IMG/VR virus record: IMGVR_UViG_2718217897_000008
From: a virus
Taxonomy: Duplodnaviria; Heunggongvirae; Uroviricota; Caudoviricetes
Direction: 5' to 3' (one strand)
DNA: 15,563 nt
The translations under genes and the position numbers were made by a program. A model generated the notes under the pieces. That model made no database searches and had not been told where the DNA came from. It saw only the letters and a program-made list of their open reading frames with translations. The first letter of the stretch is position 1, and every line of letters starts with the position of its first letter. Below, one piece after another: positions 12,355 through 15,563 of the stretch.

Positions 12355-12657
12355 TCATTGTGTTCCCATTGATGTTCTTTTATATACCCTCAGTACCCGT
12401 TTCATCGCGGCACTCTGGCGACACTCCTTAAAAATCAGATTCGTGCTCACCTTTCCTTCCCGTTCTTCTCTGGTAGCGAACCGGTAATACACCGTTCGCC
12501 AGACCTTACCATCAACGACCAGGATTCCTGCCCGCGCCATTTTAGCCGCAGCCTGATTTATGCTGGTTACGGTTGCACCTGTTACCGCGGCAACGTCCTG
12601 TGCACAGAAGCTCTTATGCGTCCCCAGGTAATGAATAATTGCCTCTTTGCCCGTCAT
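12355..12657 (-). CDS. renD: Ren (Rex-exclusion resistance protein) homolog, 100 aa
   Basis: Translation MTGKEAIIHYLGTHKSFCAQDVAAVTGATVTSINQAAAKMARAGILVVDGKVWRTVYYRFATREEREGK... closely matches lambda Ren as recalled; ATGA overlap with the upstream P fragment. Confidence 0.8.
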   Translation of the reverse strand: MTGKEAIIHYLGTHKSFCAQDVAAVTGATVTSINQAAAKMARAGILVVDGKVWRTVYYRFATREEREGKVSTNLIFKECRQSAAMKRVLRVYKRTSMGTQ

Positions 12658-12890
12658 ACACTTGATCCTTTCAGTCCGAACTTAGCTTTGATTTCTGCGA
12701 TCTTCGCCAGAGCCTGTGCACGATTTAGAGGTCTACCGCCCATGACAGGAAGTTGTTTTACTGGTTCAGGTATCGCCTCACCACGGTTAATTCGCGCGGT
12801 CATACAGGACAGTTCATCGGCAGCCTTGCGCCGTAATTCCGCGTCAGTCAGCGCATTGGCCCGCATGTTCTGGTACAAGTTGGTAACCAA
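12654..12890 (-). pseudogene. C-terminal fragment of replication protein P (helicase loader), about 80 codons
   Basis: Translation ...VTNLYQNMRANALTDAELRRKAADEL..TARINRGEAIPEPVKQLPVMGGRPLNRAQALAKIAEIKAKFGLKG..V matches the lambda P C-terminus; homology runs a few codons further upstream (AYW) to a stop at 12918-12920; no O gene or N-terminal P present. Confidence 0.8.
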
Positions 12891-12900
12891 CCAGTAAGCA

Positions 12901-13266
12901 ATGGGATATGCCTCTGGTTATGTCTGGTTGAATCCACCATACAGCAATATTTCCCCTTTTGTGAAAAAGGCAGCCACTGAAAACAAATTCAGCAGTGTGG
13001 GATGTGTAATGTTATTACCTGCTGACACATCTGTCGGATGGTTTCATGAAGCGATACAAACCGCCAGTGAGGTCAGATTCATCACGGCAGGACGACTGGC
13101 ATTTATTAACCCACTCACCGGGAAACACGTCAGTGGAAATAATAAAGGCTCGATGCTCATTATCTGGCACCCATACCCCCGTACACACTGCCACTTTACG
13201 ACCGTTGATCGTGGAGAGTTGATGGCGTTCGGCTCAAGGATTCTTGCCCGTCGGGAGGCTGCATGA
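12901..13266 (+). pseudogene. 5'-truncated phage Dam-family N6-adenine DNA methyltransferase fragment, 121 codons
   Basis: Begins essentially at the catalytic NPPY motif (GYVWLNPPYS) followed by a ...MLLPADTSVGWFHE...VRFITGRLAF pattern typical of phage Dam methylases; the N-terminal SAM-binding half is missing and the ORF abuts the P fragment head-to-head. Confidence 0.6.
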
Positions 13267-13346
13267 CAACCACGGAATGCATTTTTCTGGCAGCGGGCTT
13301 CATATTCTGTGTGCTTATGCTTGCCGACATGGGACTTGTTCAATGA
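13263..13346 (+). CDS. candidate small hydrophobic peptide, 27 aa (single predicted TM helix)
   Basis: ATG overlaps the upstream stop (ATGA) and its stop overlaps the next ATG (ATGA); translation MTTTECIFLAAGFIFCVLMLADMGLVQ. Below the ORF-track size cutoff; speculative. Confidence 0.35.
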   Translation: MTTTECIFLAAGFIFCVLMLADMGLVQ

Positions 13347-13558
13347 CACCTCAGCAGGAAAACGCCCTTCGCAGCATAGCCCGTCAGGCTAATTCTGAAA
13401 TCAAAAAAGCCAGACAGCAGTTTCCGGATAAAAACGTCGATGACATTTGCCGTAGCGTACTGAAGAAGCACCGCGAAACGGTAACGCTGATGGGATTCAC
13501 ACCGACTCATTTAAGCCTGGCGATCGGCATGTTAAACGGCGTCTTTAAGGAGCGATGA
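13343..13558 (+). CDS. hypothetical phage early-left protein, 71 aa
   Basis: Translation MTPQQENALRSIARQANSEIKKARQQFPDKNVDDICRSVLKKHRETVTLMGFTPTHLSLAIGMLNGVFKER; translationally coupled to the upstream small ORF; the track ORF starting at 13244 is an out-of-context extension. Confidence 0.5.
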   Translation: MTPQQENALRSIARQANSEIKKARQQFPDKNVDDICRSVLKKHRETVTLMGFTPTHLSLAIGMLNGVFKER

Positions 13559-13656
13559 ACATGAAAAGCAAAATCATCAGGGAGCTACAGGCTCCTTTTT
13601 TATTATTCGCATTCACCCTCAAGCGTATTAACCAACAATTCAGGGATTAATGGAAG

Positions 13657-13875
13657 ATGGCAGACATCATTGATTCAGCATCAGAAATCGAAGAATTACA
13701 GCGCAATACAGCAATAAAAATGCGTCGTCTGAACCACCAGGTTATATCTGCCACTCATTGTTGTGAGTGTGGCGATCCCATAGATGAACGAAGACGCCTG
13801 GCCGTTCAGGGTTGTCGGACTTGTGCAAGCTGCCAGGAGGAGATCGAACTTAAGAACAAACAATGGGGATTGTGA
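13657..13875 (+). CDS. TraR/DksA-family C4 zinc-finger protein, 72 aa
   Basis: C-x2-C ... C-x2-C pattern (CCECGDPIDERRRLAVQGCRTCASCQ) with preceding acidic helix, typical of phage/plasmid TraR-like proteins. Confidence 0.7.
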   Translation: MADIIDSASEIEELQRNTAIKMRRLNHQVISATHCCECGDPIDERRRLAVQGCRTCASCQEEIELKNKQWGL

Positions 13876-13922
13876 TGGCCTCAAAGCAGCAAATTTCAAC
13901 ATCGTCCAACTGAGGTGTAAAA

Positions 13923-14201
13923 ATGTTCAGAATCATTTTGCCTAACACCTGGTACGTCGACCACCACGGCACTCCCTGCAAAATCCTGCGTTCTACCCAC
14001 AACAAAGTTCACTACATCCGAAAAGGCAGAACATGTATCGCCAGCATGTTCCGCTTTAATCATGACTTTGAACCTGTGAATAAAGCTGATGCAGATCGGA
14101 TAGCAGAAGAGATCGAAACGGCAGAACACATTAAGAAGTTACGTGACATGCGTTCAAAAAGCAGAGGTAACCATGGAATCATACAGCCTCACACTCGATG
14201 A
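13923..14201 (+). CDS. hypothetical protein, 92 aa
   Basis: ATG at 13923 preceded by a GAGGTG Shine-Dalgarno at good spacing; no recognisable motif. Confidence 0.5.
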   Translation: MFRIILPNTWYVDHHGTPCKILRSTHNKVHYIRKGRTCIASMFRFNHDFEPVNKADADRIAEEIETAEHIKKLRDMRSKSRGNHGIIQPHTR

Positions 14202-14544
14202 GGCCTGTCAGTTTCTTAAGATATCCAGACCAACCGCCACCAACTGGATACGAACAGGCCGCCTACAGGCAACACGTAAAGATCCAACCAAGCCAAAATC
14301 TCCTTACCTCACAACACGGCAAGCCTGCATTGCGGCGCTTCAGTCTCCGCTGCATACTGTCCAGGTGAGCGCGGGTGATGGCATAACAGAGGAAAGAAAA
14401 TGTCACTCTTCCGCAGAAATGAAATATGGTATGCCTCGTATTCGCTCCCGGGCGGGAAACGAATTAAGGAATCTCTTGGCACAAAGGACAAGCGGCAAGC
14501 TCAGGAGTTGCACGACAAGCGAAAAGCAGAACTCTGGCGAGTAG
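14173..14544 (+). CDS. xisD: excisionase-like (AlpA/Xis-family HTH) ORF, unusually extended so that it overlaps the integrase start by 145 nt; possibly a pseudogene
   Basis: [31 protein letters not shown] has the Xis/AlpA-type HTH; GAGGT Shine-Dalgarno before the ATG at 14173 (the track ORF starts 10 codons earlier at 14143); the frame runs on to 14544, well past the int ATG at 14400. Confidence 0.5.
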
Positions 14545-15563
14545 AAAAGCTAGGGGATTTACCTGATGTCACTTTTGAAGAGGCCTGCCTAAGATGGCTT
14601 GAGGAAAAAGCTGATAAAAAATCTCTCGATTCAGATAAAAGCCGGATTGAGTTCTGGCTTGAACATTTTGAGGGTATAAGGCTTAAAGATATCTCGGAGG
14701 CAAAGATTTACTCTGCTGTAAGCAGAATGCATAACAGAAAGACGAAAGAAATATGGAAACAGAAAGTTCAGGCCGCCATCAGGAAAGGTAAAGAACTGCC
14801 TGTTTATGAACCAAAGCCAGTACCAACTCAGACAAAGGCAAAGCATCTTGCCATGAGAAAGGCCATTCTCCGTGCTGCAGAACGCGACTGGAAGTGGCTG
14901 GAAAAAGCGCCTGTCATCAAGATACCAGCGGTCAGAAACAAGCGAGTCAGATGGCTGGAAAAGGAGGAAGCAAAACGCCTTATTGATGAGTGCCCCGAAC
15001 CACTGAAATCTGTCGTCAAGTTTGCGCTGGCAACTGGTCTGAGAAAGTCGAACATCATAAATCTGGAATGGCAACAAATCGACATGCAGCGACGAGTTGC
15101 CTGGGTGAATCCAGAAGAGAGCAAATCAAACCGCGCCATTGGTGTGGCGCTGAACGATACCGCCTGTAAAGTGTTGCGTGATCAAATAGGCAAGCATCAC
15201 AAATGGGTGTTTGTACATACCAAGGCGGCTAAGCGAGCAGATGGAACATCAACGCCTGCGGTCAGGAAGATGCGCATCGACAGCAAGACATCATGGCTAT
15301 CAGCTTGTCGTCGTGCAGGAATTGAAGATTTCCGTTTCCATGACCTCAGACACACCTGGGCAAGCTGGCTGATTCAGTCAGGCGTCCCATTATCAGTGCT
15401 TCAGGAAATGGGCGGATGGGAGTCCATAGAAATGGTTCGTAGGTATGCTCACCTTGCGCCTAATCATTTGACAGAGCATGCGAGGAAAATAGACGACATT
15501 TTTGGTGATAATGTCCCAAATATGTCCCACTCTGGAATTATGGAGGATATAAAGAAGGCGTAA
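14400..15563 (+). CDS. intD: P4-type tyrosine integrase, 387 aa
   Basis: C-terminal catalytic-domain motifs (...[10 protein letters not shown]..., [23 protein letters not shown] with the catalytic Tyr); N-terminal arm-binding-like domain; terminal position next to xis. Confidence 0.9.

Follow-up and report, generated by a model that had tools for sequence, protein, structure and literature searches.

The chain of small open reading frames (ORFs) at positions 13263–13650 of the caudoviricete record IMGVR_UViG_2718217897_000008 (15,563 nucleotides [nt]; "the window" denotes this whole stretch) is for the most part the already known exo-xis block of phage lambda, rediscovered. With a probability that we put at about 0.6, the interval represents the orf61-to-t2 segment of that block, organized as a polycistronic string in which successive cistrons would be translated by termination-reinitiation and in which a leader-like ORF runs over the terminator t2. 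What comparative analysis appears to add to the published picture is a corrected start for Orf61, population-genetic support for a hidden micro-ORF of 27 codons, and an ORF-through-terminator cassette that occurs in several phage lineages. An earlier reading of the window (the original prediction) had rightly placed the chain in the xis-proximal part of a lambdoid early-left operon but had found none of its products recognisable; the 71-amino-acid (aa) protein is in fact Orf61 (PHROG 303), the hairpin is t2, and the 31-aa ORF is probably one already reported from ribosome profiling (Ribo-seq).

The interval 13263–13875 is about 97% identical to the conserved exo-xis block of lambda, and alignment with lambda, 4A7, PhiR30_1, SfI and ev207 (the lambda sequence being taken from contaminant contigs in unrelated assemblies) identifies it as the exo-xis segment comprising orf61, the intergenic region and orf73. 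A megablast search matched 182 phage records, in most of which homology starts exactly at 13261–13263. The genes orf60a, orf63, orf61, orf73 and ea22 constitute a conserved early block of lambda-like phages (PMC8614690), and the entire exo-xis region is dispensable in the laboratory (PMC4195576). Among the sequences gathered, contigs L009–L022 (our locus labels) carry lambda-identical sequence, including the lambda-type orf61 frameshift, on contigs of about 48.4–48.5 kb or on fragments at low coverage. These come from assemblies labeled Shewanella, Pseudomonas, Bradyrhizobium, Kitasatospora, Oceanobacillus and others, and are very likely lambda contamination or spike-in. The GenBank entry 'Campylobacter phage CJLB-4' (48,361 bp) also has a lambda-type block.

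Three consecutive ATGA overlaps, each with TGA as the stop codon, join a dam methylase fragment to the 27-aa ORF, the 27-aa ORF to the 71-aa ORF, and the 71-aa ORF to a 31-aa ORF, just as the original prediction had described from the methylase fragment onward. To place them in context, 376 related loci were gathered from IMG/VR, metagenomes, GTDB genomes and GenBank phages, 306 of which are complete across 13263–13660 and represent 131 haplotypes. The first two overlaps recur in hundreds of related loci, bearing out the proposal that these genes are tightly coupled, and on this comparison we regard the chain as real and its overlaps as non-coincidental. ATG 13263 overlaps the stop codon of dam here and that of orf63 in lambda, and in both upstream contexts the mosaic (recombination) junction falls exactly at the ATGA of the 27-aa ORF. 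The orf61 start is GTG, within GTGA, in 16 haplotypes. The third overlap is weaker. ATG 13555, the start of an ORF predicted at 13555–13650 with the right coordinates but credited with 32 aa instead of 31, is GTG in 80 of the 131 haplotypes and lost in 2 (82 altogether), and the overlap is therefore considered incidental, the conserved ORF being that of 29 codons.

The lambda counterpart of this segment is transcribed early from pL. In the reading that we favor, the 27-codon ORF would start on the stop codon of whichever gene lies upstream and would yield a conserved, single-helix membrane micro-protein with uncharged flanks, and its own stop, overlapping the true orf61 start, would hand ribosomes on to the 71-aa three-helix protein. 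The 29-codon ORF, preceded by a strong Shine-Dalgarno sequence, would then carry translation across t2 up to its stop codon, 6 nt short of the TraR-like orf73. Ribosomes moving along this leader-like ORF would melt or mask the t2 hairpin and arrive at orf73, making read-through into orf73 and on to xis-int translation-dependent on transcripts unmodified by the N antiterminator.

Table 1. Features of the small-ORF chain and its immediate neighbors, in window coordinates.
Feature	Position	Strand	Basis
Truncated dam (DNA N6-adenine methyltransferase) pseudogene	ORF 12901–13266, homology from 12896	+	Pfam Dam PF05869, E 4.9e-35
Shine-Dalgarno GGGAGG, 4 nt 5' of ATG 13263	13253–13258	+	sequence
27-codon ORF, hydrophobic one-helix peptide MTTTECIFLAAGFIFCVLMLADMGLVQ	13263–13346	+	selection and intactness
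'N-terminal extension' of orf61 (93-aa form)	13277–13342	+	judged non-coding in the orf61 frame
orf61 proper, 71-aa three-helix protein (REL606 WP_000188870.1)	13343–13558	+	homolog of lambda Orf61 / phi24B vb_24B_7c
Shine-Dalgarno AAGGAG, 8 nt 5' of ATG 13561	13547–13552	+	sequence
29-codon leader-like ORF (31 codons from ATG 13555)	13561–13650	+	stop 6 nt before orf73
Terminator-like hairpin AGGGAGCT-ACA-GGCTCCTT and T-run	13579–13606 (hairpin 13579–13597)	+	predicted t2 of lambda/phi24B
orf73 homolog, TraR/DksA-type zinc-finger protein	13657–13875	+	Pfam zf-dskA_traR 1.2e-8, PHROG 54

The 27-codon frame and the start of Orf61

The peptide specified by the 27-codon ORF is strongly hydrophobic and single-transmembrane-like, as originally predicted, with a grand average of hydropathy (GRAVY) of 1.62 and a best 19-residue Kyte-Doolittle window of 2.33. 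Its counterpart in lambda, complement(30925..31008), is unannotated in the lambda reference record; the exact peptide sequence is deposited in a few records and in UniRef as 'hypothetical protein' only, and was not found in the literature searched. The ORF is intact in 300 of the 306 complete loci and the peptide identical in 282 of 317 copies, and a Q27* variant re-forms the overlap as TAATG. Under neutrality, a synonymous fraction of 0.28 is expected in this frame. All 31 changes together give a synonymous to non-synonymous ratio of 15:16 (P 0.011; ratio of non-synonymous to synonymous rates, omega, 0.41), which becomes 11:5 among changes found on at least two haplotypes (P 7e-4, omega 0.17) and 8:1 among those found on at least three (P 2e-4, omega 0.05), the counts being of alleles and not of independent evolutionary events. 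Codon position 3 takes 16 of the 31 distinct changes, the sense 27-aa frame scores best among the six frames, and its omega is similar to those of Orf61 and Orf73 (about 0.32 for Orf73 in an earlier set of 230 loci). The 27-aa ORF is thus probably a real gene, with purifying selection acting in its frame. Its product would be translated and located in the membrane, and our best guess is that it acts as a small modulator of a host inner-membrane protein, contributing to phenotypes credited to orf61.

The direct repeat ATGACA flanks an 80-nt unit carrying the 27-aa ORF, at 13263–13268 (the 27-aa start) and at 13343–13348 (the orf61 start), and because it is present at both flanks it suggests that this unit was inserted between the ribosome-binding site of orf61 and the orf61 body. 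An analogous, unrelated ORF occupies the same place in Yersinia phage vB_YenM_30.14, where a 31-aa transmembrane-like frame, which does not vary across the five phages known, sits in ATGA coupling between a methyltransferase gene and orf61. Rfam returned no match in 12800–14300, and the sole nearby minus-strand promoter-like site (13269 to 13240) is directed away from the 27-aa ORF.

The 71-aa protein, for which the original prediction had proposed profile searches, matches PHROG 303 over residues 1–71 (E 4.7e-36), and tblastn against lambda J02459 finds 97.9% identity over two frameshifted pieces. Its position is also that of the Orf61 family, the window having the order orf61, t2, orf73, upstream of a TraR-like gene, and the pairing of orf61 with a TraR-like gene is found as well in Klebsiella phage RCIP0098, in metagenomic contig L231 and in locus L234. 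A confident annotation of this protein was one half of what the original prediction had set against itself, and it exists; the other half, coupling by coincidence, finds no such backing in the recurring junctions. Orf61 is pro-lytic according to the literature, with published deletion phenotypes (PMC6213356, PMC8614690): deletion of orf61 makes lysogenization more frequent and induction and adsorption less efficient, chiefly in phi24B (PMC6213356). Lambda orf61 is cut short by one extra A in an A-run (window ~13402–13407; lambda contig L009 ~2060), in agreement with the published remark that it 'appears to be truncated' (PMC8614690). An orf61 indel is present in 24 of the 306 sampled loci, and repeated loss of Orf61 is apparent while the flanking small ORFs stay intact; the 27-aa ORF remains intact in 21 loci with an orf61 indel, both it and the 29-aa ORF being scored as intact there. 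Across the 71 codons the synonymous to non-synonymous ratio is 23:28 for all changes (P 0.003, omega 0.44), 16:8 for those on at least two haplotypes (P 4e-5, omega 0.18) and 16:7 for those on at least three (P 2e-5, omega 0.16).

The comparative data favor ATG 13343, the start placed by the original prediction, over the published 93-aa form. A HMMER search of 1.8e9 representative sequences found about 20 distant relatives of 30–65% identity, all of 68–78 aa, aligned from residue 1 (1–71 to 1–71) and never with an extension, and the published extension therefore looks like a mis-annotation. In RCIP0098, L231 and L234/L235 the orf61 homolog begins, without extension, at an ATGA overlap with the upstream gene, which encodes a methyltransferase in L231 and L234 and a protein without a Pfam match in RCIP0098. 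Locus L232, with an apparent homolog at 51%, is an E. coli assembly full of indels and was set aside as uninformative. The mosaic junction of phage SfI lies within the first codons of the 71-aa ORF, and 4A7 and ev207 have a TGA just 5' of ATG 13277. Within the extension, read in the orf61 frame, the ratio is 6:18 for all changes (P 0.78) and 0:4 for those on at least three haplotypes (P 1), with omega at least 1.3 in both cases, and the common changes are G7R, H18Y and T20A. We conclude that Orf61 starts at ATG 13343 and that the published 61/93-aa annotation has been mis-drawn.

The AlphaFold2 model of the 71-aa protein (predicted local distance difference test [pLDDT] 87.9) consists of helices at residues 3–26, 32–49 and 54–64. 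A homeodomain-like three-helix fold has been proposed for Orf61 (PMC8614690); a Foldseek search of the model against the PDB gave no match at E <1, and its top matches include no homeodomain. Neither NCBIfam, searched with the 71-aa protein, nor the PDB chains, searched with the 93-aa form at E <0.01, gave a match. Several other identities were rejected. ZapA, the name given to many copies by the Prokaryotic Genome Annotation Pipeline (PGAP), reaches 16.1 bits against a PF05164 cut-off of 23.8 and covers residues 3–35 only; the Pfam match to Viral_DNA_Zn_bi is below threshold; and lambda Ea8.5, suggested by the 93-aa length and the Cys/His-rich extension, is discounted by the alignment of the region to orf61 and not to ea8.5 and by the lack of a PDB match to solved Ea8.5 homologs. 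The C-terminal stretch GFTPTHLSLAIGMLNG (residues 50–66) is near the ankyrin-repeat consensus and drew designed ankyrin repeat proteins (DARPins) and long ankyrin-repeat proteins at weak E-values; ankyrin homology was not accepted, the resemblance being one of motif and probably due to a shared helix-turn-helix motif.

Genes of the Orf61 family lie directly 3' of methyltransferases of at least four unrelated Pfam families, namely Dam PF05869, N6_N4_Mtase PF01555, MT-A70 PF05063 and D12 PF02086 (L107, L109, L231, L233, L234/L235 and window 12896–13558). The CGG(G)AGGnnGCATGAC junction seen here in the dam context, which encodes ...(T)EAA*, directly precedes orf61 homologs after unrelated methyltransferases in distant phages, and is common to the window, L231 and L234 and also to L107, where the upstream protein has no Pfam match. 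Such arrangements point to a possible functional relationship between Orf61 and the orphan methylases of phages, for instance a controller or partner role.

The leader-like frame over terminator t2

The 29-codon ORF begins two bases after the orf61 stop codon, and its ATG 13561 is kept in 127 of the 131 haplotypes. With AAGGAG at 8 nt and a terminator lying wholly within it, it has the layout of a leader-type attenuator. The hairpin and T-run that the original prediction had noted inside the last small ORF are those of t2: eight base pairs and a 3-nt loop are followed by TTTTATTATT, RNAfold gives -10.2 kcal/mol (z = -3.2 relative to shuffled sequences), and the hairpin sequence AAAATCATCAGGGAGCTACAGGCTCCTTTTTTATTATT, between orf61 and orf73, is identical to that published for t2, an ARNold-predicted terminator of lambda and phi24B (PMC4195576, Table 4). 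A BPROM-predicted promoter, p1 (-35 TCATCA, -10 TTTTATTAT), overlaps t2 (PMC4195576, Table 3), and reverse transcription quantitative PCR in lambda shows lower mRNA levels downstream of t2 (PMC4195576). The gene that follows aligns to lambda orf73, whose product, homologous to TraR, binds to RNA polymerase and has an inhibitory effect on rRNA promoters (PMC9239242). The terminator tL3 was considered for the hairpin and rejected, the hairpin lying near lambda 30680 and matching t2. We take tL3 to adjoin exo, within lambda 31088–31348 (the pKD46 fragment).

The hairpin is conserved as a structure more than as a sequence. It occurs with two stem versions, GGGAGC/GCTCCC and GGTCGC/GCGGCC, both of which fold (-7 to -17 kcal/mol) before the T-run and which, in an ungapped alignment, pair in registers one base apart; the stem and T-run fold is seen in 18 of 19 distinct diverged sequences. 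The switch between stems replaces E by S and A by R in the product and keeps the GC hairpin. The 29-aa peptide itself thus appears to be under less constraint than the RNA structure or the act of being translated, which suggests a cis-acting, leader-like ORF rather than a conserved peptide. An ORF with the same frame and the same placement of start and stop recurs in L231 (Orf61 65% identical), in the P22-like Salmonella phage L237 and in 18 IMG/VR contigs, with the consensus M(K/T)ALITR(E/S)L.(A/R)PF(L/Y)(L/F)LAFTFNRINRQFREH and a stop codon 2–8 nt before the next ATG or overlapping it. The cassette of a 29–32-aa ORF and a terminator has the appearance of a portable unit (L237 895–993, L238–L255, L231 637–729): in the P22-like Salmonella phage it comes after methyltransferase genes without an intervening orf61, and the next gene after it is usually a TraR homolog and in some phages another gene. 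An apparent ATGA overlap in L237 was dropped, as it involves a non-annotated frame.

According to the summary of lambda ribosome profiling given in PMC8614690 (citing Liu 2013), a 31-aa ORF in this block is translated. The frame designated 'orf2313' is probably the 31-aa ORF of the chain, because the coding strand of the block has no other ORF of that length.

Alternative readings and significance

Several observations weigh against the favored reading, and many of them equally feed the view that 13263–13342 is a non-coding leader or an insertion remnant in which neither frame is productively translated, the third-position pattern reflecting chance, hitch-hiking, or antisense or RNA/DNA-signal constraint (such as the weak BPROM promoter p2). 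The 27-aa segment is missing from divergent orf61 loci: tblastn found no diverged homologs of the peptide, distant orf61 homologs mostly lack any such ORF, which is why it is seen as a lineage-specific insertion not required for Orf61, and the flanking ATGACA repeats themselves suggest an insertion. Because all copies are at least 90% identical, the case for selection draws on 31 polymorphisms that lack phylogenetic independence, and it is of modest strength once singletons are counted (the P of 0.011 given above). One antisense frame sharing the same third positions is also enriched for synonymous changes (8:4, vs 10:2 for the 27-aa frame). The extra ORFs named in the Ribo-seq summary for the block, as far as that summary goes, are of 7 aa and 31 aa, with no 27-aa ORF among them (PMC8614690, citing Liu 2013). 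Even so, we consider a non-coding origin unlikely. The sense frame outscores all others, the antisense ORF crosses the mosaic junction and has C-terminal tails that differ between phages, start, stop and length are kept in 300 of 306 loci, with Q27* restoring an overlap, and a 3-nt periodicity is not what an RNA or DNA signal would be expected to leave. The peptide also lacks Lys and Arg altogether, an uncommon composition for micro-proteins that insert into membranes. Of the remaining difficulties, most concern the 29-aa ORF, whose omega within the population lies between 0.5 and 1.2 and is not significant (5:15 for all changes, P 0.7, omega 1.2; 5:7 for those on at least two haplotypes, P 0.22, omega 0.5), whose conserved C-terminal codons coincide with the Shine-Dalgarno sequence of the gene that follows, and part of whose C-terminal conservation was imposed by the search pattern itself. 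Minimum free energy and centroid folds of 13565–13615 consist essentially of the terminator hairpin alone, no systematic antiterminator search having been made. Lastly, a scan of 12600–14450 found no plus-strand sigma-70 consensus promoter, and the chain may be silent in this host.

If the literature is right, Orf61 has 93 aa, its 22 N-terminal residues (MHFSGSGLHILCAYACRHGTCS, rich in Cys and His) being encoded by 13277–13342, and the 27-aa ORF is an out-of-frame artifact that goes untranslated. The orf61 frame does stay open as far upstream as TTG 13244, no complete haplotype has lost ATG 13277, the PHROG 303 and PHROG 26061 profiles include the extension (146.6 vs 123.8 bits), and the longer form is annotated in many records and used in published models (PMC8614690). 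The profile support, however, derives from near-identical, automatically annotated sequences, the published AlphaFold and RoseTTAFold models differ on residues 1–23, which were left out of the comparison statistics (PMC8614690), and a GGA stands directly beside ATG 13277, leaving no usable Shine-Dalgarno spacing. Taken with an omega of at least 1.3, recurrent changes that are all non-synonymous, and distant relatives that lack the extension, these points make a 93-aa Orf61 very improbable. The small ORFs might instead encode effectors, the 27-aa product being a membrane-depolarizing toxin or anti-defence factor and the 29/31-aa product a trans-acting host-takeover factor. They lie in an early accessory region with known effects on the lysis-lysogeny decision and on replication of the host (PMC9239242, 'bin' ORFs; PMC4195576; PMC6213356), the hydrophobicity of the 27-aa peptide equals that of type I toxins, and the 29-aa C-terminal motif AFT(L/F)(K/N)RIN(Q/K/R)QFR is conserved, three lineages using the synonymous codons CGT, CGC and CGA for Arg. 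Yet no Pfam, PHROGs or NCBIfam family matches the small peptides at its cut-off, the 27-aa peptide has neither basic residues nor a polar tail, the 29-aa residues at the hairpin vary freely while base pairing is kept and omega stays near neutral, and the region can be dispensed with in the laboratory (PMC4195576), all of which renders effector roles decidedly doubtful.

The reading of the segment as orf61-to-t2 with a leader-like ORF invites a broader and much more tentative proposal: that lambda and Shiga-toxin phages encode a conserved, early 27-aa membrane micro-protein under a mis-annotated orf61 N-terminus, and that the 29-codon ORF and t2 form a portable, translation-sensing attenuator gating Orf73. 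Every published orf61 deletion has also removed the 27-aa ORF, and part of the lysis-lysogeny, adsorption and host-replication phenotypes may therefore belong to the latter; its share may be clearest in lambda, where orf61 itself is frameshifted. The comparative data contradict the start codon on which structural modeling, deletion phenotypes and such database names as 'ZapA' and the 93-aa Orf61 have all been based, and a conserved micro-ORF sits exactly within the interval deleted in orf61 studies. Should the 27-aa peptide be produced, work with orf61 deletions on the induction of Shiga-toxin prophages will need alleles that separate the two. The ORF-through-terminator cassette before TraR-like genes would provide, in turn, a simple and testable example of translation-dependent control of early phage genes.

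Prophage setting and comparison with known systems

By its match to sequenced genomes, the window is a DLP12-type defective prophage of E. coli B/C: the 2.1 kb that surround the small-ORF chain match E. coli B REL606, BL21 relatives, E. coli C and ATCC 8739 at 100% identity, and in REL606 the matching DLP12-type prophage is located at tRNA-Arg. The plus strand of REL606 carries intD, a partial xis, a DUF4222 gene, a TraR/DksA gene, the gene for the 71-aa hypothetical protein and the dam pseudogene, and the opposite strand, adjoining the dam pseudogene, a replication-protein-P pseudogene, ren, emrE and ybcK; Pfam and PHROGs assignments are concordant with these gene calls. The dam match covers only positions 60–168 of the 169 of the PF05869 profile, PGAP marks the REL606 gene as incomplete with its N-terminus absent, and homology to the full-length dam of phage PhiR30_1 sets in at 12896. 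Since the dam pseudogene abuts the P pseudogene and ren on the other strand, the part of the early-left operon comprising exo, bet, gam, N and pL has been deleted, an event that removed pL and joined the truncated dam directly to the opposite-strand P/ren fragment. At 12890–12901 the starts of the P' (minus strand) and dam' (plus strand) fragments lie within about 10 nt of each other, and this deletion junction leaves no intergenic promoter region. With pL deleted, the E. coli B/C copy of the chain is probably a poorly expressed or unexpressed relic. Farther downstream, an excisionase-like ORF (14173–14544) matches PHROG 2907 across the full profile (1–116 of 117) and overlaps the start of the integrase ORF (14400–15563) by about 145 nt; at this site in REL606, PGAP annotates only a 66-nt helix-turn-helix pseudogene.

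Small single-helix membrane proteins include KdpF, AcrZ and MgtS, and the type I toxins, in which basic residues are usual, include Hok, Ldr, TisB and Ibs. Like these, the 27-aa peptide has fewer than 30 residues and one hydrophobic helix, and is encoded on a mobile element; unlike them, it shows no sequence similarity to any of the set and has no basic residues, and no antisense RNA gene was identified beside it. Of the traits that mark type I toxins, it thus shares the short hydrophobic helix and not the basic or polar flank or the antisense RNA antitoxin. The 71-aa protein resembles lambda Orf61 and phi24B vb_24B_7c in sequence (about 98% to lambda), in its place 5' of t2 and orf73, and in its predicted three-helix body. 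It differs from lambda Orf61 in that its frame is intact, whereas that of lambda is frameshifted by the extra A, from the published 93-aa form in that its start is placed 22 codons downstream, and from the lambda locus in that its upstream neighbor is dam and not orf63. At the end of the chain stands a close homolog of lambda Orf73, related to F-plasmid TraR, which lies outside the interval described here and is relevant only as the gene behind the 29-aa ORF/t2 cassette.

The cassette itself invites comparison with leader-peptide attenuators of the trpL type. As in those systems, a gene is directly preceded by an intrinsic terminator that overlaps with a short ORF possessing a good Shine-Dalgarno sequence, and the peptide appears weakly constrained relative to the RNA structure. 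In contrast to trpL, no regulatory codon run or antiterminator hairpin was identified (no systematic search for them was made), and the ORF runs through the terminator instead of ending before it, for which reason any control would be by ribosome occlusion. With respect to the published t2 and p1 (PMC4195576), where the region is treated as intergenic, the analysis here places the hairpin within a 29-codon ORF that is itself conserved, and finds the hairpin again, with different stems, in phages of P22-like and other types.

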